A stretch of 64,000 nucleotides of DNA from positions 1-64,000 of IMG/VR virus record IMGVR_UViG_3300035034_001349, one strand, 5' to 3'. The notes under the pieces are model-generated. The model did no database searches and was not told the DNA's origin. It saw only the letters and a list, made by a program, of their open reading frames with translations. This document shows, in pieces, positions 4,752 through 62,908 of this stretch. Both the position numbers and the translations under genes were made by a program. This DNA is from a virus. The number at the start of each line of letters is the position of its first letter. The stretch's first letter is position 1.

Positions 4752-4763
4752 TAATCTATTGTT
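4752..4763 (-). promoter_or_regulatory. Late promoter AACA-N6-TA
   Basis: AACA ATAGAT TA on the minus strand, upstream of the tape-measure-like gene. Confidence 0.7.
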
Positions 4764-4791
4764 ATAGTATAACGATTATATGAAAAATAAT

Positions 4792-4830
4792 CAAAAAAAA
4801 AATACCTACCGTATGTGGGTGGTAGGTATT
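4792..4830 (-). terminator. Intrinsic terminator
   Basis: AATACCTACC/GGTAGGTATT stem followed by a T run on the minus strand. Confidence 0.7.
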
Positions 4831-4893
4831 TAACTATATACATACAAGGCGTGGTAGCATTATAGTATATAAGCGTAACTCGTATGATGAATT

Positions 4894-5110
4894 AACATCA
4901 TAATAAAGTAGTCTATCCTAATTTGAAAAATTATATACTTAAGATAGTATCAATTTGTTAACTAGATTAAAAGGTTTTAATTAACATTGATAAAGATTCC
5001 CAACATAATAGCTGGTTAAAGGATGTTGATATACAACTATGTTACGTCTACCACTTTATTCGATCGTTTCGTTTATTTACGATTGTGTGGATAGACTACT
5101 TTATTATGAA
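4894..5110 (+). ncRNA. Candidate structured non-coding RNA
   Basis: A 21-bp perfect inverted repeat (4898-4918 / 5089-5109) encloses several internal hairpins. AACA-N6-TA at 4894-4905. No ORF in the track. Confidence 0.4.
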
Positions 5111-5145
5111 CACGAGATACCACTAATATAGTAGTATCTCGTGTT
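5109..5145. terminator. Hairpin / terminator
   Basis: AACACGAGATAC...GTATCTCGTGTT stem, downstream of the HU-like gene. Confidence 0.6.
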
Positions 5146-5182
5146 AAAATTTATATAATGATTTATTTAGAATCTATTGATT

Positions 5183-5797
5183 CTAAACTTCATATTCTTC
5201 ACCTTCAAGTGTAGTGAAAATTCCTTTTTCTTTGTCATATTTACCTTTAACTTTTAAATCTTCTGGGTCTACATTAACATATTCTATACGTAATTCAACA
5301 CGGTTATGTGGGAATACTAATGTATCATGTTCGACCTTTTCTAAGTTAGAACCATACGCACGTAAATCAACATACTTATTCTTGTAAGCTGCACCTAATA
5401 CAGTATCTTTGTAAGAACACCCTGAAATAACATCTTTTAATAATGTACTGTATACTTCCATGATATCTCCAGCAACTCTCTTATTAACTCCAATACCTGC
5501 ATCATTTAATCTCTCAGCAAAGTTGTGTAAGAATTGTGCCTTTGTACATGTGCCTTCTTCTGGAATTTCAAATTGAGACATATCTACTTCAGGTTCATTA
5601 GTTAAATCAACCTTCTTCTTAACAGTTGTTTCTTTCTCAACGATTTCTTCTTCAGAAGTCATTTCTTCTTCAACTACTTCTTCCTTTTCAACTGGCTTCT
5701 TTACAGGTGCTTTCTTTACTACTTTCTTCTTAACTACCTTCTTGTTTACTTCCTTAGGTGAAAATGACTTCTTTTTAATATTCTTCTTTAGTGCCAT
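5183..5797 (-). CDS. HU/IHF-like DNA-binding protein with Lys-rich (histone H1-like) and acidic N-terminal extension
   Basis: KKVVKKKVVKKAPVKKP tail; TKAQFLHNFAERL...NKRVAGDIMEVYSTLLKDVI resembles HU helices 1-2 and is followed by a beta-arm-like region. Confidence 0.5.
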   Translation of the reverse strand: MALKKNIKKKSFSPKEVNKKVVKKKVVKKAPVKKPVEKEEVVEEEMTSEEEIVEKETTVKKKVDLTNEPEVDMSQFEIPEEGTCTKAQFLHNFAERLNDAGIGVNKRVAGDIMEVYSTLLKDVISGCSYKDTVLGAAYKNKYVDLRAYGSNLEKVEHDTLVFPHNRVELRIEYVNVDPEDLKVKGKYDKEKGIFTTLEGEEYEV

Positions 5798-5869
5798 AAT
5801 TATAACATCCTCCTCATTAATCTTTTATAAGTATTTATTTACTTATAATTATCCTTATAACTTCATTTA

Positions 5870-6360
5870 AATAATATATAATTAAAAACTATAATAACTT
5901 TAAATATAACCATATTTAGTACCTGTGATAGATTAAATTTGACTATATACAATATATTAATAACAATACTTATTGTATTAAATATAAGTAAAATTAAAAT
6001 TATTATAATTATTATCACTATAATAATATATAATTAGATATCATATTAAAATAAATTATTAATTAATTATTAATTTTAAATCTTTAAAAAATATTATATT
6101 ATTAATCATAATCTTCAATTATTTATTATTAATATTTTTTATTTATATCAATATTATGTATTAAGGTAAATATTTTTTGTTAAAATACTATTATAACATA
6201 GATATTAATAAGGTTAAAATTATATTAATATTTAAAGTAAAGGGGATATGGGGTTATAATTAATTATTTATATTTATTATAATTATATTGAATTATCATA
6301 AATTATACAAATAATTTTAGTTATAACAATTAATTAATCGAAATATAAATAATAAATAAT
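5870..6360. other. Extremely AT-rich intergenic tract with divergent promoters; origin-like
   Basis: Nearly G/C-free. Early motifs at ~5871 and ~6014-6032 (-), late motif at 6325 (+), G-rich box AAGGGGATATGGGTT at ~6240. Confidence 0.4.
6325..6336 (+). promoter_or_regulatory. Late promoter AACA-N6-TA
   Basis: AACA ATTAAT TA upstream of the RNAP beta gene. Confidence 0.7.
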
Positions 6361-6382: not shown

Positions 6383-9300
6383 ATGATAAAAGTTTTATCA
6401 GAACTAAAGGATACTTATATCTATAAAAATTTGAAACTAATCTTCAATGAAGAAGATAAGCGTAATAACACAGTATTATTCCATTTATCCAATGGTAAGA
6501 ATGATTTAAAAGAATTGGTAAAAATGGATTACTATAAACCTAATCATATACGGTCTTATTATTGTCCAAAGACACTAAGTATTAAATCTGCTCCAATTAA
6601 TAAAATCAAAAGAATAGACCAGAATGAAGTATACAAGGTTGTAAAGAACGAGTATAAATATATAAATTACTTCAGGGTTAAATTGAAAATGTATGGTACA
6701 AAGAATATGTACTATGATATGTCTTTTGAAAATAATCACTTCTTTAATAGTGTAACTATGAGTGGACCAGTTATGTATGGCTATTATAAGAACTTTTTAA
6801 ATGAGGTTATAAATCAAAAAGAATTTGAGGGTAAGAAGAAAGTTGTATTTGTAAAGATGAATAATAAGTTATCATCAGACGAACCTAATAATCCTGCTAA
6901 AATATTATATAGTCTTATATATAGACGTATGTTATTAGAAAATGATTTAAAAGATATAACATTTATATTCTATTCAACTAAACAGAACTTACTATTCAAA
7001 GTTAGTAACTTCAATGATATTAATATATCTAAATTTAAGAATTTACTAGGATTAATTAATTCCTTAGAGACTGGTAAAACTATGACTCCTACTGAACTAA
7101 ATTTACTTAATTCAGATAGCGATAGTGAAGGAGAAATGAATATAAGTAAGGAAGCTAATAAAAGTGGTATGTTAGATTCCTTAATGAGTAAGATTAAAAA
7201 GGGTATGAATTTGGAGCCTAAGGTACATGCGTTGACAGGTGAAGATATAGATGTCATTGATAATATAGAAGAAATTACTGAAAAATTTATAGACGAACAT
7301 CCTGATATAGATAATATAGAAGACTTAGAGGATTCATTAAATGATAATGAAGAATTCCTAAGATATCTAAATGATTTAAAAGAAGAAAAAGCTGAAGCAG
7401 TAGAAAATAAAGTCATAGATTCAAGAGTTAATAAATTAAAGTCTGCACAGAGTGAAGTAGAGTTAGATAATGTTACTATTGACAGTATACTCGATAATTT
7501 TAAGATGTCATCAATTGAAATAGATGAGATGAATAATATAGGTACACTTCATGACGAAATAAAAATAAGTAAACTTAAAGACTTAGATAGTAATTATAAC
7601 AAGTATCAAAATCAAAAAGACTTTTCATCAGTAATAACAGCATTTAATAATGATGACGATATCAAATTATATGTAAGAAATATTGAAAGAGAAGATACAT
7701 CTGATTCATTCAATAAAAAAGAAACTATTACTATCAAGTTTAGAGATTCTAAGAATGAGGACCATACATTTAAGGTTGATTTACCTAAAATAGTAGACGA
7801 TAGATTTTTATTTTTAAATGGCGGTAAGAAATCAATAGCTAAACAGTTGACATTGTTGCCTATCGTTAAGACTAAGGAAGATACAGTTCAAATAACTTCA
7901 AACTACAATAAGATATTCCTGACTAGATTTGGGAATAAGATAAATCCTAATACTGAGAAGATAAGAAAATATTTACTTGGTAGTGATAGTCATGAGTCTA
8001 TTAAAATCCAAAAGGGTAACAATAGTGAAGTTAATAGTAACTATGATAATACATTAGAATATGATGATATATCGAATAATTTTATTAGAATTGATGTTGG
8101 AGATTATACATTTAGATTCAATCGTGGTAAGATAGAGAATGAGGTTGAAAGTAAAGGTATAAATCTTGATGGCTTGATAAATGGTAATGAATACTTATTA
8201 GGTTGGATTAAGAGAAAAGCATTAATAGTAAATAAAGAAGATGGTCATGTATATATTCGCCATCACTATCATAATGAAATAAAGAGTGAAGTGTTTGCAG
8301 AGTCAGTAGTTAAGGCTATCATAAATGCAATAGTTGTTACTTCAGGTGATGAGACTATAAAAAGTGATATAATGAATATAAATACTGGTTCTAGATTTGT
8401 TTATTCAAGAGCATCAGTAATAGGTAGAAAATTTCCGTTAGTTATAATATTAGGATTCTATAAAGGTTTAGAAAATATTATGAATAGCTATGAAATGGAA
8501 TATGAATTTTTAGAAGAGCGTAAGAAATTAACTCCAGATGAGAAAGCCAACTATAATGTAGTTAAGTTCAAGGATGGTTACTTATATTATAAAAATAATA
8601 TGATACGTTACTCTTTACTAATGAATGGACTATATGTAGCTAATACTGAAGAATATAACTTCGATGATTTCAATGATACTGAAGTATACCTTGATGTATT
8701 TAGTAATAAATATGGTAGTAGAAATATTTCAAAGGGTATAAATAATATGCTTAATCTTATATTAGATCCTATCACTATTGAAGTACTGGAAAATATGGAT
8801 ATGCCAACTGATATAGATAAACTATTATTAGAAGGTAATACATTATTAGAGAATAAAAACTACAGTGGTATTAATAATATGACTAACTATCGTATTAGAG
8901 GCAATGAATTAATTAATGCACACTTATACAAAGTATTAGCTGATGCATTTAGAGTTTATAAGGATACATCTAGATTAGGCACACCTAAGAAAATCACTGC
9001 AAGACAAGATGTTATCACTAAAAAACTTCTTGAGAGCCCGTTAATAGATGAATATTCAGTACTTAATCCAGTAAGTGAAGTTGAAAGAATGGGTAAAGTA
9101 TCCTATAAGGGACTAAGTGGAACAAATAGTGACCATGCATTTACTCTTGACATGAGAGCATATGATAAAAGTATGTTAGGTTTCTTTGGAATGAATAGCC
9201 CAGATAGTAGTAAGATAGGTACAGTTAGACAATTATCATTTAATCCTAAGATTAAAAATACCCGTGGTATAATTGATGATGACATTGATGTTAATCATAT

Positions 9301-11251: not shown

Positions 11252-11270
11252 ATCATTATTATAATATATA
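11252..11270 (-). promoter_or_regulatory. Early promoter TATATTATAA-N3-TGAT
   Basis: TATATATTATAATAATGAT on the minus strand; the motif recurs upstream of non-structural genes. Confidence 0.7.
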
Positions 11271-12791: not shown

Positions 12792-12840
12792 ATCACTATT
12801 ATAATATATATTTAGAAAAAAATATAGAAACATTATATTA
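12792..12840. promoter_or_regulatory. Back-to-back early (-) and late (+) promoters
   Basis: TATATATTATAATAGTGAT (-, 12792-12810); AACA TTATAT TA (+, 12829-12840). Confidence 0.7.
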
Positions 12841-14072: not shown

Positions 14073-14128
14073 ATTAACATTTAATTAATCAATACTAATA
14101 TAACAATAGAAGGGAACAGGTGGTTTTC

Positions 14129-15157: not shown

Positions 15158-16240
15158 CTATTCTGAATATTTTGCAATAGAACTAAGGTTAACTATAGTA
15201 TCAGTCTCATCTTCATATTCTGAATTACCTTTAACCATATCATCTAAACCATTAAATTCACCATCTTCTTTATCGGCTACTTCCTCAGTTTCTTCATCGT
15301 CATCACCTTTAAGCCATTCAGGTATTTCTTCTTCACTCTCTTTTTGTTCTTCATCAGTTAATTTGTATTCCTCTTCCTCTTCACTTTCTTCAAATGGTAA
15401 ATCTTCTTCATCATCACTTGAACTGCCAAACATATCATTTATCGGAGTACTATAACTGCTATTATTCTTAAATTTTCGTGTTATCTTTTTCTTAGTACTC
15501 TTAACTTTACTCTTAACTGTATTTGGAACTCTATTTGATTCTGAGCTACTCTCTGATTTATGTGATGATAGAGTTAATAACGCAGTATTATATATAAGTT
15601 CACTACTAGTTACTAAGTTAAATCTATCAAGGAAATAAACTAATCCATCCAACATCATTTCAGAAACTTCAGCACCATATCCACTATCATTCATATAAAA
15701 TATAGCACCCTTACTCTCGTTCATACCCTCTCTATCATGAACGATAACATCAAATTCAATTGATATAACTTTATCGAATATAAGTCTATCTATATTAACA
15801 CGTAAGTCCTCATACTCTCTATTTAGAAATATACCCTCATCAGTTTCAAAGAAGACTTCTACTGGCTCATCATCATGCACTACTTCATTTTTAATTATAC
15901 TTTGTGCAAATTTAAGTTGTTTAATCAAGTGTGGTATATGTGGATAGCTTAGATAGATTTCCTCATAATTCTTATTTTTTCTATCACTATACTTAAATAC
16001 TAGGTAATCTTGTGTATCTATAGATATTTGACTCAATTTACTGTAATTACTATACTTACTTGAGTCATAACTTCTTTCATAATGAGGTTCAATCTTCTCA
16101 TCTCTACTGTTCTTTTTACCTAATAGAACTACATTCTTAACTTCTAGATTCTTTGATATGCGTAGTAATGATCTTTCTATTTTTTCATAATTATTGAACT
16201 GAAACATAAAACGTTTGCCTACCTTTCTATATATACTCAC
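15158..16240 (-). CDS. Hypothetical protein with basic then very acidic C-terminal tail
   Basis: 360-aa ORF downstream of the helicase. Confidence 0.75.
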   Translation of the reverse strand: MSIYRKVGKRFMFQFNNYEKIERSLLRISKNLEVKNVVLLGKKNSRDEKIEPHYERSYDSSKYSNYSKLSQISIDTQDYLVFKYSDRKNKNYEEIYLSYPHIPHLIKQLKFAQSIIKNEVVHDDEPVEVFFETDEGIFLNREYEDLRVNIDRLIFDKVISIEFDVIVHDREGMNESKGAIFYMNDSGYGAEVSEMMLDGLVYFLDRFNLVTSSELIYNTALLTLSSHKSESSSESNRVPNTVKSKVKSTKKKITRKFKNNSSYSTPINDMFGSSSDDEEDLPFEESEEEEEYKLTDEEQKESEEEIPEWLKGDDDEETEEVADKEDGEFNGLDDMVKGNSEYEDETDTIVNLSSIAKYSE

Positions 16241-16255
16241 TACTATAATATATTA

Positions 16256-17725: not shown

Positions 17726-19992
17726 CTAAATAAATACATTATCTATTATAGATGTACCATCCTTTTGATATAGTAATGGTGATAAGAATTGCCCTTTGAG
17801 TCTCTCAAATGCTAAACTAACTGAAGGACTCTTACTATTCTGTATTGCTGATGACACACGTAATACCTTGTATGGTGGAATCTTTTCACCAAGGAAATTA
17901 GGTTTATTTAATAAATTATCTGTATCTCTAATTAATTTACTTACAATTAACTCTGCATGAACACTATCTAAATTAATACCACTCTCTTGTATTAACTCTA
18001 TAAATTTATTATGAATATCATTAAAATTACTTAAACCTAAGTGATCTTTATTCTCAATTAATTTAAGTATTTTCTTTAATGGTTTAGATAGTTCATTGTT
18101 CTCCATTATAAACTTGAATAGAACATCCATATCTGAGTACTTGATAGTGTTTATTTTAATAATACCGTCTACATTTACACTATTGATTCTTTCAAGTAAT
18201 AATTCTGATGGGAAGAATGTTATAGGTAACTCAATTAATTTTTCATCACCATCATCATTCTCTATATACATTTTATCGATAGCATAACTACTATGCTCAT
18301 CATCCATGTATAAATCTTCTTCCTTTATAATTATACTTACATCTTTTGTTATATTATCTCTGTTAATAAATACCATATTTCTATCTACAACAAAATACTT
18401 AGTAAACGTATTACTCCAATCAAGTTCATCTGATACTGCTTGCAATAAGTGTTTAGCAGATAGTAATCTTTGTGTTATCTGTTCTGTTAAGAATAGCACT
18501 GCTATTATACCAATATGAAGGTTTCTATTTATCTTAGCCATTTTACCATAGCAAATATCACATGCACCTTCATCTTCATTACAAGTAATAGGACTCCTAA
18601 GTTTTATAGTCTTGCCAATTAAATGATAATAATCTTTATCAATTATTTTTAGACCACTATCTGTTATATGGTAACGTCCTAATACTTTCTTCAATGTGTC
18701 TTCATTAGTCACATCATATTTTAAATAATGTTTAGTCTCACAATCTTCAATATCACTAAGTTTAGTATCAATCATTAAGAGTGATAACTTTCTGGTTAGA
18801 TCGCTTACATTCATGTGAATTCGTTAGACTCACACAGTTCTTTTATGAACTTCTATATGTTTCCATATAGGCTAGACTATATCTTTTCACAATATGAGAT
18901 ATTGTTTATTCTCCGTTTCGATTTAAGGGATTCTCACCCACGCCAATAACTTGCGTCCTACTCCTAATGCATCATATGATGCCAATGGGATAGTCGTTGA
19001 ACCTTACTCTTATAAAAGAGTCTTGGATGCTGATTGTCTTCACCACCATGTGTTAAGATTTCCCAGCAGTTAAAAGAATTTATTCTGAGCTATAAATCTA
19101 AAAAGTTTAGTATCTTATCTTCTCTAAACTTTATATCTTTATTATTCATATTATATCTCCTCTAGATAATAATACGTGCGGTTAAGTTTAACCCAGATTT
19201 CCTTACTTGCTTATAATTTGTTATGATAGCCTTTCTAGCACCTGAAGCGTTTATAACAAAATCATCTACATTTCTCATTCCATTTATAAGACTAGTATTT
19301 ACAATCTTCTCTAATATACTTCCATCTAATCCTGGTTTAGCTCCAACTGCAATGGCATACTGTCTTAACTGTTTAACATTAACACCAGTACCACTATTTA
19401 GATAATTTTTCATTACATTATCTTCAGTCCTTAATATCTCTAATAATTCATCCAACTTACGATTACCCATATCTTCAATCTCTTTATATTCGATATTAGG
19501 TGGGAATTTGAAGTTTAATAAATTATAAAGGTCTTCATTCTTATTTGATAACTCTATTAGAGAGTATAGATTCATACTATTTCCATACAACACGTTGTAT
19601 GTGCCTGAGATATCATCTAGTGTATTAGTAATATCTGAAATTATACCATTAATCTTTATGAATCCTTCTTCACTTTTACCGAACTTATCAATAATACGAT
19701 TGTAATATTTCTCTAGATTACTTGATTTAAAGTTATTTGGGTCTGTTATAATAAAGTTATCATCTATACTATTACATTCAAATGTAAAGAAAGGTTTGAG
19801 TAATATTACATTAGTTACAAAATTTGCAAAAGGCATTTCATATGTTTTATCACCATTTATAACCTTTACCTTATCCTTTCTGTCACTAAATTTTTCTATA
19901 GACTCATCTACTATATGTTCAAGATTTGTTTCATAGTTATTGAGTACTAACTCCTCTAAGTTATATATCTTCAAAAAATCATCTCCATTCAT
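17726..19992 (-). CDS. Non-virion RNA polymerase beta' C-terminal subunit, spliced: join(19992..19191, 18801..17726), 625 aa
   Basis: Splicing restores the bridge-helix motif RKSGYLTRKL. Zn site LRSPITC..CDICYG, trigger loop EQITQRLLSAKH, VHAELIV. Confidence 0.9.
18802..19190 (-). ncRNA. Group I self-splicing intron (IA-type core), 389 nt, no intact homing endonuclease
   Basis: P AACTGCTGGGAAA, Q AATCAGCA, R GTTCAACGACTA, S AAGATATAGTCT. 5' splice follows a U, with P1 UCUGGGU/GCUCAGA (U.G pair). Terminal G at 18802; P10 UUAGAU/AUCUAA. Confidence 0.93.
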
Positions 19993-21404: not shown

Positions 21405-21623
21405 TTATTCCCTCCATTTATTTTATTAACTAAATAATAGATGTCCTCCCTTCAAAAATATATACATCATGTTTATAATATATAATTGGTATACTAACTA
21501 AAATTTACTCTTTTTTACTTTAAAAAAGATATTAAATTGTTATAATTTTTTATTTAAAAAATTATTTTTTGTTGATTAATTAATATATTCATAACATTTT
21601 ATTAATAAAATAGATGGAGGAGT

Positions 21624-25196: not shown

Positions 25197-25310
25197 TAAT
25201 ACACTTCCTCTCTATACATTTATTTTAAATTATTATTATATCATCATTATAATATATGATTAAGGTATTGTTTTAATTAATCAAAAAAAAAACACTTACG
25301 TAAATGAGTG

Positions 25311-25833: not shown

Positions 25834-25909
25834 GTTATCTCTCCTTTTATATGATTAGTTTATATTTATCATTATTATAATATATGATTACATACTAATT
25901 TACTACAAT

Positions 25910-28299: not shown

Positions 28300-28370
28300 C
28301 CTCCCTAAAATCTACAATTTTATCTTCAATAGTATAATATATGCTTAGATAGATAATTAGAGAAATACAA

Positions 28371-30580: not shown

Positions 30581-30681
30581 TTATTATACATTGCTCCTTT
30601 CTTAAAATTAACTATTAATGTAATGTTAAAGACAATGCAAAAAAAAAACATTATATAGAGTTAACTATATAATGTCTTATT

Positions 30682-31155: not shown

Positions 31156-31848
31156 CTATTCACCTTCCCTAAATATTCTACTTTCATAAAGGTATACAGT
31201 TGAAAGATTATTAGTTGCTAGAGAAGAAATTTTCTCTCTCATTTCTTCATCCTTGTTGTATCCATACTTAGGTATAAAGAATGACTTATTATAAGAATTA
31301 GTATTCTTAAGTACATCATATATGTTATCCAAACAGTCATCAATAAATAAATCATATTCAATACCTAACTCATTTATAGCTTCAGACTTTTTAGTATCTC
31401 CATCTACTGAAATAAAGGTTATATTCTCAGTACCTAAATATTTAGCAACCCATCTTTTCTTATAATCTTCTGTACCTTCTATTACTTTAGTCACTATATA
31501 GATATGTTCAATCTCACCTCTATCAAGTAGTATTTTCAGAGTCATTCCGAAATTAGTTATTCTACAATTAGAGTAAAATTTATCATTATCTTTATATAAC
31601 CCTAAGAATAAGTCAAATACTTCTTCAGGCAATTCTTTACCATTTGATAGCCAATTATTTAGATAATATTCATCTCTGTTTAAGACGTGCATCATACTAT
31701 AATCAAAATCTAAGTCCATATATTCTGAAAAATGTGTCTTATTTTCCAATAATAAATATGTCCACAATGGGGATATAAGAGTTAATACCTCATCCATATC
31801 AGTTGCTATTTTCTTTTTATTTTTAAGATTTGAAAGTTTCTCTAACAA
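31156..31848 (-). CDS. HAD-family 5'(3')-deoxyribonucleotidase-like phosphatase
   Basis: Motif I DMDEVL, motif II VTK, K..W, motif IV DLFIDD. Confidence 0.8.
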   Translation of the reverse strand: MLEKLSNLKNKKKIATDMDEVLTLISPLWTYLLLENKTHFSEYMDLDFDYSMMHVLNRDEYYLNNWLSNGKELPEEVFDLFLGLYKDNDKFYSNCRITNFGMTLKILLDRGEIEHIYIVTKVIEGTEDYKKRWVAKYLGTENITFISVDGDTKKSEAINELGIEYDLFIDDCLDNIYDVLKNTNSYNKSFFIPKYGYNKDEEMREKISSLATNNLSTVYLYESRIFREGE

Positions 31849-33018: not shown

Positions 33019-33039
33019 ATCATAATAATAATATATATT

Positions 33040-35019: not shown

Positions 35020-35053
35020 AAAATATAATCATGTGTTATTTTTAAACCAAAAA

Positions 35054-35475
35054 TTAGATAGATACATCCCACGATTTACCAGTAAACTTATTCTTAGTAT
35101 CACATATCTCACACTTTGTTTTACTAAGTATAAATACTGTTATAGTATCACCCTTTATTATATTACCACACTTGATATGTTTTAGGGTAAAAGGTCTGTC
35201 ATATGATAACGCTGTTAGTGGTTCGTATTCGTCGCTATCTAACATTTCTAATAAGAATTTATGCTCATTAGTCCTCTTTAATCTTGAACACTCTGGACAC
35301 CGTCCACCTGAGAATAAGAAACTATTAGGTATAACTTTCCAAGAATGACCACAGTAATTATGTCTTACCATTAATTTTGTATGTGAATTAGTGTATGAAT
35401 CAATGACACTATATTCATCCCAGCTAATTCTTCAACTTCATTTTCAAATTCTTCTTGTGTTTTAGCTCTGCTCAT
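35054..35475 (-). pseudogene. Frameshifted Zn-ribbon-repeat protein (homing-endonuclease-associated type), no nuclease domain seen
   Basis: MSRAKTQEEFENEVEELAG / DEYSVIDSYTNSHTKLMVRHNYCGH..RCPEC joins only if one base is added at GGG near 35420. Confidence 0.65.
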
Positions 35476-36436
35476 ATCTTCTAACTTCTAAACCTTTTTC
35501 TCCATATAATAAATGAATTAATAGGTTATCTATATCCTCTTTTTCATTTTCTTCAATAGTATTACCTTCCACTAATAGATTTAATACAAGTTTACGTATC
35601 CTTAAATTATTGTAATATCTATCAGTATTAAAGTCTACATTCGCTAGAAGGTGCTCTAGTACCTCAGATACAATTTCTGAAGTACTAGTAATATTTGGTA
35701 ATTTATCCACAGGAGTATCTATAAATGCAAGTAAATGAGATTCAATAGCAGTACTAAGCCCATCATCTCGTTGCATTTTAGAAATGATTTCATTAATTTC
35801 ATCGGTTCTTTCTAACCTTCTATTGAAATTGAACTCATCATCAGTTTTTTCTAAATTATTATAAGGATTATATTCATCTTCTTCATTATTATCTTCATTT
35901 ATTATAACAAATTCAACCATATCACTTGTCTTAGCATGCTCAATCATTGCACTTTCCCTAAACTTTTTATCAGATACTACACGCTTAATACCAGCTGATA
36001 TCAAAGCCTTAGCACAGTCATTACATGGACTATGAGTTGTATATGCAGTAGCACCATTTATACCTATATTATTCTTACTTGCCTTAGTGATGGCATTTAT
36101 TTCCGCATGTACTTCATACATTTTAGACCATTCTCTATGTGCAAGAGGAATTGAATTCCCTCCATATAGTTCTAACCACTTATCACTATTTACTTTGTTT
36201 TCACCATCTTCATGTGTATACAATTCATTACAATTTACATCACCTGATATAGTTCCATTTAATCCTATTGAAAGAATATTATTATCTCTAACTATAATGC
36301 ATGCTACCTGCTTGCTAGCACATTTACTATGTGTAGCCATTAATTTAGCCATACTTAAATAGGTTTTATCCCACTCTCTATTATCTGTATTATAACTATT
36401 AACCAATTTCATTGTAGTTACTGTCATATATTTCAC
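35462..36436 (-). CDS. dCMP deaminase with ~140-aa C-terminal extension
   Basis: SKC..QV, GLNG, HAEINAI, SPCNDC. Confidence 0.9.
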   Translation of the reverse strand: MKYMTVTTMKLVNSYNTDNREWDKTYLSMAKLMATHSKCASKQVACIIVRDNNILSIGLNGTISGDVNCNELYTHEDGENKVNSDKWLELYGGNSIPLAHREWSKMYEVHAEINAITKASKNNIGINGATAYTTHSPCNDCAKALISAGIKRVVSDKKFRESAMIEHAKTSDMVEFVIINEDNNEEDEYNPYNNLEKTDDEFNFNRRLERTDEINEIISKMQRDDGLSTAIESHLLAFIDTPVDKLPNITSTSEIVSEVLEHLLANVDFNTDRYYNNLRIRKLVLNLLVEGNTIEENEKEDIDNLLIHLLYGEKGLEVRRYEQS

Positions 36437-38094: not shown

Positions 38095-38147
38095 CCCTCT
38101 CTAGTTATATAAAATATCACTCAACCAATTTTATAATATATACTTTA

Positions 38148-40016: not shown

Positions 40017-40099
40017 GAACTTTCAACCGCCCTTTCATTTATTTTCTCTTAAAGTTTATTGATTTGTTAATAGTTATTTTATGCAAAAAAATAGTGAAA

Positions 40100-41689: not shown

Positions 41690-41710
41690 CAGTACGCACC
41701 TCCTTTAATA

Positions 41711-42277: not shown

Positions 42278-42289
42278 TTTATCACCTCA

Positions 42290-43074: not shown

Positions 43075-43075
43075 A

Positions 43076-43531: not shown

Positions 43532-43536
43532 TTACA

Positions 43537-44178: not shown

Positions 44179-44345
44179 ATTTTTTTTTCTCTAATACTTT
44201 CTTTATTCATAGTAGGTTCTTTTATATTAATCATTATCTTGTCTTACTCCTCTCATATTCATAAACATTAAAGTGACTATTGTCACCATCATCTACTTTT
44301 TTTTTAATATAAATACTTCTCCTTCTTCCATATTCTCATTACACC

Positions 44346-45248: not shown

Positions 45249-45283
45249 AACAAATTATTAATTAATCAATATTATAATATATA
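45249..45283. promoter_or_regulatory. Face-to-face late (+) and early (-) promoters
   Basis: AACA AATTAT TA (+, 45249-45260); TATATATTATAATATTGAT (-, ~45265-45283). Confidence 0.6.
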
Positions 45284-45343
45284 TTTAAATTTAAAACATA
45301 AATTAGGAGGTGTGGTAAGTCTAATAACTTAGACTTGTATAAT

Positions 45344-48506: not shown

Positions 48507-48611
48507 ATATTCCCATTCCTTTCTTTATATTCAAATTATATTAATTATTTGTTAGTTATATAAAATAAAGGGAGAGTTTATAGTAAACTCAACCCCTTAG
48601 TCTAATTATTA

Positions 48612-51464: not shown

Positions 51465-51634
51465 AATAACTCTCCTTTTCTTGTAATTTTATTAATAAAA
51501 TTGAATTAAATATAATTCTTAATATAAGTTGTTTAACAACTATTATCATTTATTTAATTATTTGTTTTGTTATAATATCAGAAAATTGTTGAGTTAATGT
51601 CCCATTACCCTTAATAGGTAATGGGATTTTGTGT

Positions 51635-52795: not shown

Positions 52796-52821
52796 TCCTT
52801 TCTTAGATTATTAATAGATTG

Positions 52822-53466
52822 TTATAAGTTATCAACGAACTCGATATGTTCATTTATTTTCTCAACTAAATCGAATTCTGATTCTATACGGTCTAACCTA
52901 TCAATTAGCTTGGAAATAAATACTGAGTTTCTGTTGATATCACATTCAACGATAAATTTAAAAAAAGTGTAAATAAAATATCTCTTATTCTTTCTATTCA
53001 TACCATTCAGTACTTTATTTAACTTAGTAAATAAGAATCTAGGATTTTTGAAAGTATACATACTATTGCCTAATATATGGATAACTTTTTCTGTAATAAT
53101 TTTCATTTCACCATTAGATAAATCTTCTTTAACATCCTTAGCCAGTTCCTTATCAAATAGAGGCTCAATACTGTATATAAATTTAAATTGATTCATTAAG
53201 TAGTCAACTTCAATTATTTTCTCAGTATCACTCTCATCTAATGTATCTCTCAACTTCTTTAACTTATATAAATAAATCTTTTCATCATCTAATAAATTAG
53301 ATAAGTCAAAACCATCAATCTCTTCTTCTAGATCTTTATTTAGATTATCTATCTGATTGATTATTTTATCTAATTCTTTTAATTCTTTCTTATCACTCTT
53401 ATCTAACTCATCAAAACCTTTAAAGGCTTCTACTAAATCTTTCATAGTATCTGTTTGCATGTCCAT
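52822..53466 (-). CDS. Hypothetical protein
   Basis: 214 aa, SD present. Confidence 0.75.
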   Translation of the reverse strand: MDMQTDTMKDLVEAFKGFDELDKSDKKELKELDKIINQIDNLNKDLEEEIDGFDLSNLLDDEKIYLYKLKKLRDTLDESDTEKIIEVDYLMNQFKFIYSIEPLFDKELAKDVKEDLSNGEMKIITEKVIHILGNSMYTFKNPRFLFTKLNKVLNGMNRKNKRYFIYTFFKFIVECDINRNSVFISKLIDRLDRIESEFDLVEKINEHIEFVDNL

Positions 53467-54512: not shown

Positions 54513-54580
54513 TATAACACTCCTTTTTTACGCTATACATTCATTCTATATTGAGTTGTTAATATTAAATAAAAAAAAAA

Positions 54581-57440: not shown

Positions 57441-57576
57441 CCTTTCTGTTTTTATTGTAAAAATCCTATTTTTCTATGTTCCTGTAACGTTAATTAATAT
57501 TATGTTAATTTCTTTATCATATGTATATATACAAAAAAAAAATATTCACCTATAATTAAATAGGTGAATACTTCTA

Positions 57577-57885: not shown

Positions 57886-57949
57886 AATTAAATGACCTCC
57901 TTTAATTAATCTATACTATTATTGATACCTATCACTTTTATAATATATA

Positions 57950-58250
57950 AGTGAATATTCAATATATACGATTTTTTTTTAATAAAAAAATATTATATTA
58001 ACAGATAATTACATAAAATATTTATATTAATTATTAATTATAAGGGGATTAGGGGTTTAATATTATTATTTATTTTATTATTAAATTTTATATATTATAA
58101 TTAATTATATATTTATTATTATTATTTTATTATTAAATTTTATATATTATATATTTATTATATTAATTTATATATTATGTATTTTATATTATTTTTAATT
58201 AATTATATTATATATTTATTATTAAATTTATATAGTATGTAAAAATATTA
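57950..58250. repeat. A/T-only tract with direct repeats; origin-like
   Basis: TATTTTATTATTAAATTTTATATATTATA at ~58071 and ~58123, partial third copy at ~58215; G-rich box AAGGGGATTAGGGGTT at ~58042. Confidence 0.5.
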
Positions 58251-58296
58251 AGAATATCTCTATATCTAATAATAGATATAGAGATATTCATTTGTA

Positions 58297-58575
58297 TTAC
58301 TTATTAACTAAATTCTTTAGAGTCTTTCCAGCTCTAAATGTTACTTGTTCTCTTTTACCAATATCGTAAGTCTCATCAGGATTTCTAGGATTTCTACCTT
58401 TTCTAGCCTTCATAGTCTTAACGTTGAAAGATCCAAAACCTGTTAGTTGACATCTTCCTTCTTCCTTTAAGCCTTCACTGATAACCTTGATTACAGCATC
58501 AACAGCTTTCTTTCCATCTTTCTTAGTACAGTTAAGTTCATTTGAAACTTCCTCTGTGATTTGTCTTAAATTCAT
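58297..58575 (-). CDS. hup: HU family DNA-binding protein
   Basis: LTGFGSF, ARKGRNP, VTFRAGKTLK. Confidence 0.95.
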   Translation of the reverse strand: MNLRQITEEVSNELNCTKKDGKKAVDAVIKVISEGLKEEGRCQLTGFGSFNVKTMKARKGRNPRNPDETYDIGKREQVTFRAGKTLKNLVNK

Positions 58576-58811
58576 AATCCACCTCTCTTAAATTCATTTT
58601 TTAATTTTTTAAACATTAATTTTAACAAAGTTATTAATAGTATAAATTTTCAGTTTTACTATGTTAATTTAACTTTATTATTAAATTGTTTATTGACTCT
58701 TATGTAGTTATTTAATTTTTTATTTAAACAACCAATAGATAGTATATAAAAATATTATCTTAATATAATGTTACATAAATTACTATGAAAATTATTATTT
58801 TTTTATTTAAA

Positions 58812-58830
58812 TATATATTATAACAATGAT
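58812..58830 (+). promoter_or_regulatory. Early promoter
   Basis: TATATATTATAACAATGAT upstream of nvRNAP beta-N. Confidence 0.7.
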
Positions 58831-58878: not shown

Positions 58879-60354
58879 ATGTTAGTATTGAAGAAACATT
58901 TGTCAGTATATGGTAAAGAAAACAAAGAGAGGTTTAATGAAGATTTCATATATATGAAAAGAACTGATAACGTTCTTGATTATATTAATGATGTATGTAA
59001 AGCATTAGAAGTTATTGAGGGGGTAAAATTTATAGGTTCTGAGATATCCCATGATGAAAGTGAAATAAAGACCAGAGGTAAGAAAAATAATAAGTGGATA
59101 TCATTAGACGAATCAAGACTTGATTTAATTAAGCTACACTTTGAAGTAACTGGTATAGCAGGGAGAAAAAGAGTTACTAAAACAGAGACAGTTGAGAAGA
59201 CTATTTTATATCCTAAGTTAATTGATGATTTCTATTTCTTAATAGACGGAGTTACTTACTTCCCTATATATCAGATAATAGACTTAGCGACGTATAATAC
59301 ACCAAAGTCATTAAGACTTAAGACATTGTTAATGCCTATGGTACTAAGAGAGAAAGAATTGAAGTTTACAAGTGTTGATGACACTGAATTTATTGAATCA
59401 ACGTATCTAGTAGATCTATTCAAGTATAAGTTAAATGTATTATTCTATTATTTTGCTGAGTTTGGATATGATATAGCTGATAAGTTTGGATATTCTGAAG
59501 ATGATATAGGTCTAATGAATATTAATGAAGATGAGCTTACTAATAGAGACGAATACTTCCTATTTGAAGTGAATAAGAAAGGTCTTCATGTATATATTCA
59601 TGAGGGTATGCTGGAAGAAGGAACTTTTAAAAGAAAGTTCTCAATGATGTATTTGGATATGATTAATTTCAATAGTAGAATGACAATTGATAAGATAGCT
59701 AACAATGATTATTGGAAAAAGAGATTAGGTGCTACATTCACATCTAACCCTAATTCTCAAATTGAGAAATCAGATAAGATTTTATTATCATTCAAGAGAA
59801 TACTGGATGAGAGAACGAAGAAGATACTAAGAATTAAGGAAGAATACAAGGAAGATACATTTACTATAATTCAGTGGATGATGCGTAATTATGACAGATT
59901 CATGGAGAAAGATAATATGGACTTATCAAATAAACGTATAAGATTACATGAGTATTTAATATATCCACTACTGACTAGATTCTCAAGTATAACTTATAGA
60001 TTATTGAATAAGACTACACCTACACTTAATCAGAAGATGCAACTATTTAGTACTCTTGGACCTGGCTTTATTATAAAGAAGCTTAAGAAGAATGAGTTAC
60101 TTAGATATAATAACTGTGTTAATGGTTTAGATTTAATTAATGGAGGTCTTAAGTTTACACAATCTGGTCCTCAAAGTCTTGGGGATGGTAATAAAAATAT
60201 TAAAGTAAGATATAGAGGTATACATTCTAGTTATGTTGGACGTATTGGACTTACAGCATCATCAAGTTCAGACCCAGGGATTTCTGGAACATTTGTGCCA
60301 TTTATTGAAACACAAGGTTTATATTTCACAGACCCTGAACCTGAAGATAATTAA
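58879..60354 (+). CDS. Non-virion RNA polymerase beta N-terminal subunit
   Basis: FLIDGVTYFPIYQ, DLSNKRIRLHE, GPQSLG, RGIHSSYVGRI..SSSDPGISG; early promoter. Confidence 0.85.
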   Translation: MLVLKKHLSVYGKENKERFNEDFIYMKRTDNVLDYINDVCKALEVIEGVKFIGSEISHDESEIKTRGKKNNKWISLDESRLDLIKLHFEVTGIAGRKRVTKTETVEKTILYPKLIDDFYFLIDGVTYFPIYQIIDLATYNTPKSLRLKTLLMPMVLREKELKFTSVDDTEFIESTYLVDLFKYKLNVLFYYFAEFGYDIADKFGYSEDDIGLMNINEDELTNRDEYFLFEVNKKGLHVYIHEGMLEEGTFKRKFSMMYLDMINFNSRMTIDKIANNDYWKKRLGATFTSNPNSQIEKSDKILLSFKRILDERTKKILRIKEEYKEDTFTIIQWMMRNYDRFMEKDNMDLSNKRIRLHEYLIYPLLTRFSSITYRLLNKTTPTLNQKMQLFSTLGPGFIIKKLKKNELLRYNNCVNGLDLINGGLKFTQSGPQSLGDGNKNIKVRYRGIHSSYVGRIGLTASSSSDPGISGTFVPFIETQGLYFTDPEPEDN

Positions 60355-60367
60355 GGAGCTGTTATAA

Positions 60368-60739
60368 ATGATAAAAACTGTATATAAAGTAAAATCACAT
60401 TCAGAAGAGGAAGTTATATTCATTGAGAGAGAATTTAATTTCCTTGGATTATTTAAGATACCGTATATTAAGAAGTTGGAGAGTCCTGAGTATGTATATT
60501 GGATAGAACATAGAATAGATGAGGGAAGGTACTGGTACTGCGAATATAAACCAGTTCTTAAACGTATTCATAAAGGTAAAGAAGTATATGAATATAAACT
60601 TCACCAACATCATTCTAAACAAAAAACAGAGAAGAGTGCTACAAAAATAGTTGAAGACATTGAATTAAGATCTGAGAAGAATGGCTATATTAGTGATGTG
60701 ATTACAGACTCTAGGAGTTTAAGGGGATTATATCTATAG
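60368..60739 (+). CDS. Hypothetical protein
   Basis: 123 aa, AAGGAG SD. Confidence 0.7.
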   Translation: MIKTVYKVKSHSEEEVIFIEREFNFLGLFKIPYIKKLESPEYVYWIEHRIDEGRYWYCEYKPVLKRIHKGKEVYEYKLHQHHSKQKTEKSATKIVEDIELRSEKNGYISDVITDSRSLRGLYL

Positions 60740-60748
60740 GAGGAGTTA

Positions 60749-61228
60749 ATGAATAACGGTACAGTGGTTAAGGACTTTAAAGTGTATGAATTGGAGAATG
60801 TAATAGAATCATTAGGTGTTAAGCCTAATGATACAATTATAATAAAGAGTAAAGTAAACAATCCACATTATATTAGTGACGATTGTAAAAAAATAATAAA
60901 TTGTAATGATTCTGAATTGAGTATATTATCATTAATTGGCGAGGAATATATTATATTGCATGGTTATGAACATATAAGTAATGCAATGAGATTAATCAGA
61001 TGTATCAATAATGATATACCTTTGTTTTGCATGATTATTGAACACGGAGAAGTAAAAAATAAATTAAAGCTTCATCCAGTTAAGTATATCAAAAATAATG
61101 CTATTAATTTAGAGGGTTTAGCCATATATCCTCATGATGATATAGAGACTATGAGTAAGCATATTAGTTTCTTAGAGTTTGAAGATTATAAGTTCTTTAG
61201 ACGTAAGAAAGAACGAAGAGCGACATAA
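60749..61228 (+). CDS. Hypothetical protein
   Basis: 159 aa, AGGAGGAG SD. Confidence 0.7.
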   Translation: MNNGTVVKDFKVYELENVIESLGVKPNDTIIIKSKVNNPHYISDDCKKIINCNDSELSILSLIGEEYIILHGYEHISNAMRLIRCINNDIPLFCMIIEHGEVKNKLKLHPVKYIKNNAINLEGLAIYPHDDIETMSKHISFLEFEDYKFFRRKKERRAT

Positions 61229-61280
61229 TAAGTAATAAATATTCCATTAACCTTATGGGTTAATGGAATTTATTTTTTTT

Positions 61281-61970
61281 TTATCTTATAAATATCTTTC
61301 GTCTATTAGCACTTTTATGAGAATGTTGTCTGAATGTTTCCAGTATATCTTTTCTATCATCTTCAGCACCCTCAAGTTTATTCATGAATAGTTCTATACT
61401 CCCATATAAAGTTTCGATATTATTGAACCTAAATCTTATAGGATATAAGAACTTCCTAACATCACAAATAGCTAGCTCATAGAATTGATCCTTAAGAGAA
61501 ATAGGGATAGTCGAAAAATGGTCAGGATGAACTGCTTTTATTTGAACTGTGAATTTACTTACTAAACTTTTTTTTGGAAATATTTCTATAAGTGATGGTG
61601 GATGAAATTGATGTGTTACTGGTTGCATCATCATAGAAGATGCATTACTAGCGGCTTGTCTATCTAAAGGACTTCTAGATAATAATCCACTGTTATATGC
61701 ACCATTACCAGTGTTGCCATAACTTAAAATTACCTTAGAAACAGATAATATATCGTAATCAGTATCTAAGAAATACATTTCTTCAGCACCATGCTTGTCT
61801 TTATCAGGTGTAACAATTACCTCCGCATAATGAGGAAAGTATTTACTAAATGTAGGTAAAGTTTCTTCCCTTATTATATCAAGTATTTCTTCTTTACTTA
61901 TTTCTAATACTTGATGAGTCACACCTAACATACCATCTATATGTCTAATAACTTTGGTAGGTGTTAACAA
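61281..61970 (-). CDS. Virion structural protein, possibly head-completion/neck
   Basis: Follows the prohead protease in a late operon; helical N- and C-termini flank a beta domain. Confidence 0.45.
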   Translation of the reverse strand: MLTPTKVIRHIDGMLGVTHQVLEISKEEILDIIREETLPTFSKYFPHYAEVIVTPDKDKHGAEEMYFLDTDYDILSVSKVILSYGNTGNGAYNSGLLSRSPLDRQAASNASSMMMQPVTHQFHPPSLIEIFPKKSLVSKFTVQIKAVHPDHFSTIPISLKDQFYELAICDVRKFLYPIRFRFNNIETLYGSIELFMNKLEGAEDDRKDILETFRQHSHKSANRRKIFIR

Positions 61971-61986
61971 ATTGGATCACCTCCGT

Positions 61987-62835
61987 TTATTTAAAAATCT
62001 CTATTAAATCAGTATCTAATTGTTTCTTAGCATAATCTTCAATACGAACTTTAAATTTCTTACTACCTTCTTTAACATCTAAAAATCTAGCATCTTCATT
62101 CAAAGTAATATGAGATTCATTCATGGCTAAGTCAAACTTCTTAATTATGTCTTCCATGTCATTATCTTCATCACATATGAAGTCTGTCATATCTTCATTC
62201 TCAGTTAATGGTATTATTGAACCTTCTGATAACAACTTTAAATCAGCATTTTTATTAGGTAAAAGACTATCCATAGTTGACTCAGATAAGAATTTTTCCA
62301 TATATGCTATCTCATGAGATGGATGAATAACCCAGTCATAAGTAAATATTTTAATAGGGTCTTTAACATATAGTATATTACCTTGTTGTTCAGTTTTACT
62401 ACCTAGACCTCTCATTGAAAATGCAACTTCAGAACCTTGACGAATTAGTCCCATCATATCTCTACCACTTCTTGTATTAGCAGTCTCTATAAGACCTTTA
62501 ACTACATTACCTTCAAACCATACCTCACGAATAATATGAGATATTCTAGTCTGATCTATATGTAATTGTCGTTTAACATCATTTGATAAAGGATGTCCAC
62601 ATTCACCATACCATGCTTTTCTTTCTAAGCGTTCTTGAATATAATCACTATTTAGTGCATTCTTTAAACCTTTATACTGATAAGATCTTCTATTTCTATT
62701 AGGAGTATCTGCATCTTGTAATACTGCTTTAAATGTAACAGAATTAGTAGCTTCGTTATATCCTACAATTTCAGGTTTAGAAGTAATTGTACTTTCAGAA
62801 ATTAAAAAGGCATTATTTTTTTCCATAATCATCAT
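61987..62835 (-). CDS. Prohead protease (T4 gp21-like)
   Basis: NRNRRSY, GECGHP, ISHII, FSMRGLG, DWVIHPS; late promoter 62873-62884. Confidence 0.9.
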   Translation of the reverse strand: MMIMEKNNAFLISESTITSKPEIVGYNEATNSVTFKAVLQDADTPNRNRRSYQYKGLKNALNSDYIQERLERKAWYGECGHPLSNDVKRQLHIDQTRISHIIREVWFEGNVVKGLIETANTRSGRDMMGLIRQGSEVAFSMRGLGSKTEQQGNILYVKDPIKIFTYDWVIHPSHEIAYMEKFLSESTMDSLLPNKNADLKLLSEGSIIPLTENEDMTDFICDEDNDMEDIIKKFDLAMNESHITLNEDARFLDVKEGSKKFKVRIEDYAKKQLDTDLIEIFK

Positions 62836-62908
62836 TCCTTTCTTTATATTTAATTAATTTATCTCTTTATTATAATAGAATGTTTAATAATGATAACAAA
62901 ATATTAAT

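Follow-up and report, generated by a model that had tools for sequence, protein, structure and literature searches.

Does an uncultured giant phage carry the two-promoter code known from phage AR9, and if so, does that code tell us that its genome contains uracil instead of thymine? The question is raised by a window of 64,000 nucleotides, the whole stretch of DNA analysed here, which is part of a 74-kb IMG/VR fragment that represents about 29% of an AR9/PBS1-like jumbo phage genome. The phage was found in metagenomes from lakes and salt lakes. Its DNA polymerase shares 38% identity with that of PBS1/AR9, followed by those of vB_BpuM-BpSp, Staphylococcus S6, Listeria LPJP1 and Yersinia phiR1-37, and about 30 genes of the fragment have AR9 counterparts, mostly colinear. 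A first-pass annotation had read two promoter types from the DNA. This reading is correct: both motifs are real, they match the consensuses mapped experimentally in AR9 (PMC5312081), and they sort the genes into the two classes known from AR9. The coordinates are collected in the table.

All 17 late AACA-N6-TA sites of that annotation are present, each on the strand of its downstream gene. It could be objected that in a genome of 28% G+C such matches arise by chance, without function, wherever intergenic DNA is AT-rich, and the bare motif is indeed not enriched across the window (83 copies versus 93.5 +/- 8.6 in shuffles). The comparison of upstream regions with background that the annotation had proposed nevertheless bears the motif out. 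Sense copies lie in 18 upstream regions, defined as the 120 nt before genes that are preceded by a separate gap of 25 nt or more, where four to five are expected (4.2 +/- 1.9 after dinucleotide shuffling of these regions). The tighter form AACA-N4-ATTA gives 13 versus 0.8. Intergenic DNA makes up 8.9% of the contig and holds 30 of its 95 copies. Sense copies outnumber antisense copies, spacers of 5 or 7 bases show no upstream enrichment, so exactly 6 are needed, and altered tetramers in place of AACA show none either. Among all 4096 patterns of the form XXXX-N6-YY this one ranks first. When the 17 sites and the one before the capsid gene are aligned (n=18), bases that were not selected for recur as well: T(-12) in 13 sites, A(-3) in all 18, T(-2) in 14 and A(+2) in 15. 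The same pipeline recovers the mapped late motif of AR9 as a positive control (75 versus 19.6).

The promoter class is also conserved at orthologous genes in our phage, its closest relative (G001) and AR9, despite protein identities of only 35-57%. The portal, sheath, g127, g125, g123, capsid and virion-RNAP beta'-N genes are late in all three, and the non-virion beta-N gene is early in all three. A chance origin is contradicted by the shuffles, spacer, orientation, rank, A(-3) and conservation together, and we give it next to no credence.

The early motif, TATATTAT-N5-TG, had been said to precede the non-virion RNAP and accessory genes, and it does. Intergenic copies, all facing genes, number 16 over the whole contig, of which the window contains 14; counted as upstream regions there are 12 against 0.1 expected, and the motif is identical to the 34 annotated AR9 early promoters. 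We regard both motifs, with their enrichment, orientation, strict spacing and conservation at orthologous genes, as demonstrated.

Who reads them is best approached through AR9. The purified non-virion enzyme of AR9 reads the late promoters A(-11)ACA-N6-T(A/G)(+1), and the virion enzyme is credited with the early consensus (PMC5312081, PMC5449584). In AR9 and PBS1 (Takahashivirus) the late promoters are the business of a five-subunit non-virion RNAP with gp226, and the early promoters, AAATATATATTAT-N6-G, that of the virion RNAP. Our phage shares with AR9 both consensuses, the strict 6-base spacer and the ATTA preference at the start site, even though its proteins are only 26-57% identical to those of AR9. 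It might still be argued that both motifs are read by the polymerase of the host, guided by a sigma factor of host or phage origin, since they are AT-rich and resemble -10 elements. We consider this very unlikely. Sigma-70-like matches occur at chance level (109 versus 100 +/- 10), the phage encodes both polymerase sets, and in AR9 the two identical consensuses are associated with polymerases that the phage itself encodes (PMC5312081, PMC5449584).

Table. Promoter sites and key genes. Late, AACA-N6-TA; early, TATATTAT-N5-TG; genes named are those downstream of the site.
Type	Position	Strand	Gene or context	Remark
Late	4752..4763	-	tape-measure gene 1-4698 (AR9 g204-like)	motif also at AR9 orthologue
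Late	6325..6336	+	virion-RNAP beta-like gene 6383-10537 (AR9 g189-like)	
Late	12829..12840	+	virion / head-tail joining protein gene 12873-14072 (AR9 g165-like)	
Late	14076..14087	+	AR9 g163-like gene 14280-14714	
Late	21593..21604	+	AR9 g142-like gene 21624-22352	
Late	30616..30627	-	virion-RNAP beta'-N gene 29072-30580 (AR9 g145-like)	kept in G001 and AR9
Late	35026..35037	-	DNA polymerase catalytic half 33040-35019 (AR9 g152-like)	also at G001 orthologue
Late	40057..40068	-	DNA polymerase exonuclease half 38148-40016 (AR9 g132-like)	weaker, AATA end
Late	45249..45260	+	portal gene 45335-47623	kept in G001 and AR9
Late	48542..48553	-	AR9 g127-like virion protein gene 47685-48506	kept in G001 and AR9
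Late	51555..51566	-	tail sheath gene 48612-51464	kept in G001 and AR9
Late	52812..52823	-	AR9 g125-like virion protein gene 52052-52795	
Late	54549..54560	-	84-aa ORF and AR9 g123-like gene	AATA end
Late	57495..57506	-	g118-like protease gene 56580-57440 and terminase large subunit gene 54581-56527	
Late	58679..58690	-	92-aa ORF 58297-58575, ~100 nt away	AATA end; G001 orthologue has motif at similar distance
Late	62873..62884	-	prohead protease/scaffold gene 61987-62835	
Late	62895..62906	+	172-aa ORF	divergent partner of 62873 site
Late (18th site)	63991		major capsid gene 64061-65653 of contig	
Early	5864..5878	-		
Early	6016..6030	-		
Early	11254..11268	-		
Early	12794..12808	-		
Early	16238..16252	-	inside helicase / g161 operon	
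Early	21468..21482	-	head of operon: five small genes, non-virion RNAP beta'-C gene, helicase gene	
Early	25242..25256	-	SbcC-like gene 22461-25196	
Early	25870..25884	-		
Early	28327..28341	-		
Early	33021..33035	-	ORF-free stretch, 261-aa gene, HAD gene	
Early	38126..38140	-	head of dCMP deaminase operon, running into DNA polymerase catalytic half	
Early	45267..45281	-	head of small-gene array 40100-45214, running into DNA polymerase exonuclease half	
Early	57933..57947	-		
Early	58814..58828	+	non-virion RNAP beta-N gene	kept in G001
Gene	17726..19992	-	non-virion RNAP beta'-C (AR9 g154-like)	two exons
Gene	31156..31848	-	HAD-fold phosphatase, AR9 g151 orthologue	motif I DMDEV, residues 17-21
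Gene	35462..36436	-	dCMP deaminase (residues 21-184)	orphan acidic C-terminal tail, ~140 residues
Gene	58879..60354	+	non-virion RNAP beta-N (AR9 gp105-like)	40% identity

As in AR9, the late class takes in the structural and virion-RNAP genes and the early class the non-virion RNAP genes, and the DNA polymerase genes belong to both. The beta and beta' genes are split and the gene order is largely the same. The first-pass annotation had put all three virion-RNAP subunits and both DNA polymerase halves under late promoters, which needs some revision. Two of the subunits, the g189-like and g145-like genes, are verified by homology; the third is not. A late motif does precede both polymerase halves, but each also follows an early-promoter operon from which no clear terminator separates it, so they fit the "continuously expressed" class of AR9 and not a purely late one. 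Unlike in AR9, neither half has a dedicated early promoter immediately in front of it. In the non-virion enzyme, the beta-N Arg374 aligns with Arg363 of the -10U pocket of gp105, so the uracil-pocket arginine is conserved, and a group I intron (18853-19136) interrupts the beta'-C gene. By synteny with AR9 g103, the 92-aa ORF at 58297-58575 may be an HU gene; tblastn of this ORF against AR9 gave no match. Between it and the beta-N gene, the place syntenic to that of Ugi in AR9, our phage has no Ugi gene, unlike AR9.

The annotation had gone on to suggest a uracil genome from the late promoter, with the HAD and dCMP deaminase genes as fitting that pathway. AR9 and the phages BpSp, S6, LPJP1 and phiR1-37, all with reported uracil DNA, do have the late motif enriched, with z of 5.6-12.4 for AACA-N6-T(A/G) upstream in the latter four. 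The thymine-DNA Pseudomonas phage phiKZ, which also has two multisubunit RNAPs, shows no AACA-N6-TA enrichment (z 1.3-1.7), and the late motif published for it is TATG (PMC7598289). It is important to realize, however, that the AR9-type late promoter does not diagnose uracil DNA, because of G004, a complete uncultured 333-kb jumbo phage from IMG/VR with terminal repeats. G004 has the same motif, even more enriched (80 versus 16.7, z about 17-21), and encodes a homologue of the non-virion RNAP beta-N subunit as well as a member of the gp226 family. A true dUTPase gene adjoins its gp226 gene, it lacks the HAD and dCMP deaminase genes that our phage has, and its gp226 has Arg-Tyr at 206-207, where AR9 has the uracil-selecting Val206 and then Ile207.

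Gene content is the better evidence, and it gives the uracil suggestion partial support. Our phage and AR9 both have a dCMP deaminase gene and, near a DNA polymerase gene, a HAD gene. The deaminase gene of our phage stands under an early promoter and, unlike that of AR9, is relocated beside the polymerase gene and carries the orphan tail. AR9 g151 is annotated as a 5'(3')-deoxyribonucleotidase; the HAD protein has no match to Pfam NT5C. Of 50,697 phage records, just 21 contain a homologue, all of them PBS1/AR9-like, BpSp, LPJP1, phiR1-37 or S6-like Staphylococcus phages, which are listed as uracil-DNA or proposed uracil-DNA phages (PMC10303552). Among these records the HAD gene is a marker limited to reported or presumed uracil-DNA phages. 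It is absent from phiKZ, which has thyA, and present in BpSp, the S6 group, LPJP1 and phiR1-37, none of which has a thyA, thyX or dUTPase gene. The marker also goes together with Val206 of gp226: six of seven complete genomes have both and G004 has neither.

Yet the promoter system could operate as described on ordinary thymine DNA, if a gp226-type subunit tolerates T at -11 and -10, as it seemingly does in the G004 clade; in that case the HAD and dCMP deaminase genes would have their role in thymidine synthesis or in general salvage of nucleotides. The deaminase serves thymidine synthesis too. Apart from G004, this reading gains from the variability of position 206, which is Val in only 62% of 172 gp226-family proteins and Gly in one small subclade, and Gly lets the AR9 enzyme accept thymine (PMC9209446). 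The tree does not nest our phage within a uracil-only clade: with G001 it forms its own clade, apart from BpSp, S6, LPJP1 and phiR1-37, and the trees show this clade, the uracil clades and the G004 clade as a four-way polytomy. BpSp, S6, LPJP1 and phiR1-37 are cultured phages whose uracil evidence is direct (indirect for LPJP1), and ours is uncultured. All four have gp226 with Val206-Ile207-Trp208; those among them that do not infect Bacillus have no recognisable Ugi (see also PMC10303552). Against thymine DNA stand the restricted distribution of the HAD marker and the lack of thyA, thyX and dUTPase genes in our fragment (about 29% of the genome) and G001, together a wider sample of the clade, which is what the annotation had expected; the remaining 71% or so could carry a thyA or dUTPase gene. 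The decisive subunit for the uracil question is gp226, and the search for it that the annotation had proposed found none on the 74-kb fragment or in G001. We treat thymine DNA as a serious but less favoured reading, and on gene content we lean towards deoxyuridine in place of thymidine.

From the sequence we infer the pairing of polymerases with motifs, the transcription starts and the timing as follows. The early promoters, TATATTAT-N5-TG(A), lie upstream of the non-virion polymerase, nucleotide-metabolism and accessory genes and would be recognised by the virion-packaged RNAP, which itself has late genes here. Recognition of the late promoters, tAACA-N4-ATTA, would fall to the non-virion polymerase, which has early genes for beta-N and beta'-C; it would start at their final A and would need a gp226-type specificity subunit encoded off this fragment. 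The late promoters would serve the structural and virion-polymerase genes and both DNA polymerase genes, the latter also through early read-through. Since its early and late promoter signals are the same as those of AR9, this lake-water fragment is a new but unremarkable relative of a system already known. The best explanation of the whole is probably that of an AR9/PBS1-like phage that uses the AR9 two-polymerase scheme, with deoxyuridine DNA the favoured state of its genome.

The record studied here, G000, is a genuine and well-supported instance of the known AR9 transcription system in a new, fairly divergent uncultured relative of AR9, a Bacillus phage with two RNA polymerases (RNAPs). This single IMG/VR virus record is linear and 74,328 bp long, with a G+C content of 28% and a completeness of 29% as estimated by CheckV; the window covers its first 64 kb. 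A 7-kb query compared by Megablast with 50,697 phage records gave no DNA-level match. Among cultured phages the closest by protein are PBS1/AR9, whose DNA polymerase catalytic half is 38% identical, followed by BpSp, the Staphylococcus S6 group, Listeria LPJP1 and Yersinia phiR1-37. Local tblastn maps about 30 genes onto the AR9 genome in an order that is largely that of AR9; besides those in the table they include helicase, SbcC, portal, sheath, terminase and prohead protease genes. Capsid and ligase genes lie just past the window end. Metagenomes of lake water and salt lakes dating from 2017-2019 contain the sequence; no RNA run among the sequencing runs checked contained it.

The closest IMG/VR relative, G001 (97.6 kb, 38% complete), has a beta-N that is 57% identical to that of G000. 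A search for beta-N loci with a single protein found no locus; a search with an alignment brought up 9 loci in viruses and 28 in metagenomes, a set that misses a 233-kb contig encoding a beta-N identical to that of G001. In a five-protein tree G000 and G001 group together with support of 100/100, and their union with the Firmicute uracil clade receives only 44/21. A rooted tree built from 121 beta-N sequences shows a polytomy of four clades, those of AR9/S6, of G000, of G004 and of phiR1-37/G002 (G004 and G002 are uncultured phage genomes).

Features of the window (empty cells: not given)
Feature	Position	Strand	AR9 counterpart	Remarks
Tape measure	1-4698
Virion-RNAP beta	6383-10537		g189	AACA site upstream
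Non-virion RNAP beta'-C	17726-19992	-	g154	exons 19162-19992 and 17726-18814
Group I intron in beta'-C gene	18853-19136	-		Rfam RF00028, 74 bits, full-length model match
Virion-RNAP beta'-N	29072-30580		g145	AACA site upstream
HAD protein	31156-31848		g151	33% identical to g151
Possible small early RNA	32710-33035	-		early promoter 33021; terminator-like hairpin 32794-32773
dCMP deaminase	35462-36436	-	g221
Acidic tail of dCMP deaminase	35462-35880	-		residues about 185-324
Small-gene cluster	40100-45214	-		single early promoter 45267
A/T stretch	57950-58290	+		AACAGATAATTA site at 58000 leads in
Small ORF	58297-58575	-		precedes beta-N
Non-virion RNAP beta-N	58879-60354		g105
DNA polymerase halves			g152 and g132

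The evidence for the late promoter lies in its placement. Bare AACA-N6-TA occurs 83 times across the whole window where 93.5 +/- 8.6 copies are expected, so the raw count is at chance level and uninformative. Nevertheless, all 17 sites proposed by the first-pass annotation do read AACA-N6-TA on the same strand as the downstream gene, and 30 of the 95 contig copies fall within the 8.9% of the DNA that is intergenic. We examined the 120 nt before the 44 genes that have a gap of their own, taking dinucleotide-preserving shuffles as background (4-5 expected across runs). The sense motif was found in 18 of these regions against 4.2 +/- 1.9 expected, and the tighter form AACA-N4-ATTA in 13 against 0.8. 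In this test there was no enrichment when the spacer was 5 or 7 bases long or when the tetramer was changed to ACAA or AAGA, and in an unbiased count AACA-N6-TA ranks first of all 4096 XXXX-N6-YY patterns. When the 17 sites and one before the capsid gene are aligned, bases that played no part in site selection are shared as well: T at -12 (13/18), A at -3 (18/18), T at -2 (14/18) and A at +2 (15/18). Three of the 17 (40057, 54549 and 58679) are weaker matches that end in AATA instead of ATTA. Sigma-70-like promoter matches in G000 are at chance level. The motif has the AACA, the strict 6-base spacer and the T(A/G) of the AR9 late promoter, and it stands in sense orientation before structural and other late genes.

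The early motif is cleaner still. Of the 16 intergenic TATATTAT-N5-TG sites of the contig, 14 fall within the window, and all 16 point at a gene; counted by upstream regions there are 12 against 0.1 expected. This agrees with the AR9-type virion-RNAP consensus, (AAA)TATATATTAT-N5/6-(T)G before early genes. In the AR9 record 34 early promoters are annotated; they read AAATATATATTAT-N5-TG(A), with a core identical to that of G000. The mapped AR9 consensus sequences are AAATATATATTAT-(6N)-G for early and AACA-(6N)-T(A/G) for late genes, the final base being the start site (PMC5312081).

The strongest argument that these sites are functional is that the promoter class is kept at orthologues. It is retained gene by gene across G000, G001 and AR9 despite protein identities of 35-57%. 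The portal, sheath, g127, g125, g123, capsid and virion-RNAP beta'-N genes are late in all three, and the tape measure, virion-RNAP beta, g165 and g142 genes are late in G000 and AR9; non-virion beta-N retains the early class. Late-motif enrichment in G001 is 26 against 6.6. Given only the AR9 sequence, the same pipeline retrieves that phage's late motif (75 against 19.6), which validates the method. Both virion-RNAP genes that we could verify stand under late promoters; three subunits had been claimed, and the third was sought in the window and not found. The genes for non-virion RNAP beta-N and beta'-C are both present.

One assignment does need changing. Each DNA polymerase half has its AACA site, as first annotated, but the halves should not be called purely late, since the early operons that start at 38126 and 45267 lie directly upstream and no convincing terminator separates them from the polymerase genes. 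In AR9 a 'continuously expressed' class carries promoters of both kinds and includes both DNA polymerase genes (PMC5312081). An AACA site combined with read-in from an early operon resembles that class, and on the strength of this arrangement the two halves of G000 probably behave in the same way.

Several other features of the window deserve a record. The group I intron was found by a targeted Rfam scan and missed by the whole-window scan at gathering threshold, which returned zero matches; no tRNA genes were found in the window. Under the promoter at 45267 lie some eleven small, closely spaced genes (55-188 aa) that have no AR9 homologues. Downstream of the early promoter at 33021 come about 250 nt with no ORF and then the hairpin, a stretch that may be a small early RNA and matches no Rfam family at gathering threshold. 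The A/T stretch is ORF-free, almost pure A/T, and holds several TATATTAT-like repeats.

The next question is whether the late promoter tells us that the DNA contains uracil, as the first-pass annotation argued. The non-virion polymerase of AR9 requires that template positions -11 and -10 carry uracil and not thymine (PMC5449584), and the uracil pocket is formed by helix 2.1bis of the specificity subunit gp226 (Val206, Ile207) together with beta-N gp105 (Arg363, Lys375) (PMC9209446). The change V206G makes the AR9 enzyme accept thymine, and Val206 is conserved in the uracil-DNA relatives (PMC9209446). We applied the same upstream test for AACA-N6-T(A/G) to eight comparison genomes. Besides AR9 itself, enrichment was found in the uracil-DNA phages BpSp (z 12.4), phiR1-37 (z 11.7, 66 against 15.3) and S6 (z 5.6), and in LPJP1 (z 8.5), for which the evidence of uracil DNA is indirect; LPJP1 DNA has been examined by PCR with a uracil-sensitive archaeal-type polymerase and a uracil-tolerant version of it (PMC8460666). 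Papers of 2017 and 2020 state that a late promoter consensus had not been identified in phiR1-37. The thymine phage phiKZ showed no enrichment (z 1.7), and the uncultured G002, with 66% G+C, showed a weak one (z 2.7).

The strongest enrichment of all (z 17, 80 against 16.7) belongs to G004, a complete uncultured 333-kb genome with terminal repeats, and it is this genome that breaks the argument. G004 encodes a genuine dUTP diphosphatase, scoring 138 bits with NF010561 and 20 bits with dCTP deaminase; its gene (L077:18331-18738, minus strand) adjoins the gp226 gene, and a gp226 homologue is found in locus L016. Neither a dCMP deaminase nor a g151-type HAD gene was found in G004, and its gp226 has Arg-Tyr-Trp in place of Val-Ile-Trp. 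From its gene content G004 probably carries AR9-type promoters on DNA without uracil. This combination means that the late motif extends beyond the uracil phages and alone is not diagnostic of uracil. The observation of a two-promoter code stands, its interpretation is partly supported, and the step from promoter to uracil should be replaced by marker genes and, at best, by gp226 and the chemistry of the DNA.

The best such marker in G000 is the HAD protein. It has the features of the 5'(3')-deoxyribonucleotidase type, namely motif I DxDx(T/V), here DMDEV at residues 17-21, and the later Thr, Lys and Asp-Asp motifs: Thr120, Lys153/154 and Asp170-171 are invariant in G000, G001 and G002, while in AR9 g151 the first Asp of the pair is Glu. 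An AlphaFold2 model of medium confidence (mean pLDDT 73.5) predicts a Rossmann-like fold closest to deoxyribonucleotidases. Its top Foldseek match is the deoxyribonucleotidase-like 3bwv (E 1e-5) and the human mitochondrial and cytosolic deoxyribonucleotidases are matched as well, with TM-scores of only 0.43-0.56. The protein did not match Pfam NT5C (PF06941) or any other Pfam or NCBIfam family; sequence comparison with the PDB gave nothing meaningful, and one homology search retrieved solely the query. A dTMP phosphatase is known from PBS2 biochemistry, and the HAD protein is a candidate for that role.

What makes the gene useful is its distribution. By tblastn, only 21 of the 50,697 phage records contain a homologue, and all 21 are PBS1/AR9/Goe21/Internexus, BpSp, LPJP1, phiR1-37 or S6-like Staphylococcus phages, and the same phages are listed as uracil-DNA or proposed uracil-DNA phages (PMC10303552). 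In seven complete genomes its presence coincides exactly with gp226 Val206. The gene adjoins the DNA polymerase catalytic gene in AR9, BpSp and LPJP1 and lies within about 1.2 kb of it in S6, G001 and G000.

The second marker, gp226 residue 206, is absent from the G000 fragment: no gp226 homologue is encoded in its 74 kb, nor was one matched in G001 or in two further comparison genomes (G003, G005). Word-based searching with an alignment of gp226 yielded mostly AR9- and phiR1-37-like proteins; a full HMMER search gave 544 homologues, with no genomic context tying any of them to G000. Position 206 is Val in 62% of the 172 homologues examined, and Val, Ile and Thr together make up 73%. The helix 2.1bis Val206 (D-x-V-I-W) is kept in AR9, BpSp, S6, LPJP1, phiR1-37 and G002, and replaced in G004. 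A basal G004-like grade of the family is without this Val, and most of the 150 sequences of a crown clade have D-x-V-I-W. The crown-clade exceptions are scattered and include a small Gly206 subclade of metagenomic homologues (P0262, P0268, P0276, P0282 and P0283), which carries the same change that makes the AR9 polymerase accept thymine in vitro.

The remaining genes say less. The gene for dCMP deaminase belongs to an operon headed by an early promoter, but the enzyme is weak evidence for uracil because thymine phages use it too. The protein ends in an acidic, helix-rich tail of about 140 residues with no homologue in the ten genomes compared, AR9 and G001 included (the G001 orthologue is 173 aa). 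Arg363 of gp105 is kept as Arg374 in G000 beta-N; the counterpart of Lys375 is ambiguous, as the alignment hinges on gap placement. No thyA, thyX or dUTPase gene was found in G000 or G001, both of them fragments (29% and 38% complete). None of the three genes occurs in the five reported uracil-DNA phages tested, while phiKZ has thyA and G004 its dUTPase. The small ORF, an early promoter and beta-N follow in the same order as AR9 g103 to g105, but the AR9 Ugi gene (g104) that lies between those genes is missing from the syntenic spot in G000. Recognisable Ugi is found in Bacillus phages only (PMC10303552), so this absence says nothing either way.

With the HAD marker on one side and the G004 precedent and the absent 71% of the genome on the other, we lean towards uracil DNA in G000 on its gene content, and consider it somewhat better than an even bet. 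A wider reading is put forward more tentatively, and we would place it a little short of even. The lake clade of G000 and G001 would be a further uncultivated uracil-DNA lineage beyond the known Firmicute and Yersinia hosts. The AACA-N6-TA promoter system would predate the switch to uracil, and sister clades would have versions of the sigma-like subunit with a uracil-selective Val206, an altered Arg/Lys206 or a possibly thymine-tolerant Gly206.

For the window itself the result is mainly one of annotation: transcription units and their probable timing can be read from two short motifs. The AR9 late promoter is common to a large, mostly uncultured group of jumbo phages, phiR1-37 included. For calling uracil DNA the promoter alone is insufficient; residue 206 of gp226 and the presence of a g151-type HAD gene serve better. 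If the lake clade does have uracil DNA, this rare DNA chemistry would extend to new habitats and hosts. If the wider reading is true, the sister clades would be a natural series on how a polymerase came to distinguish uracil from thymine.
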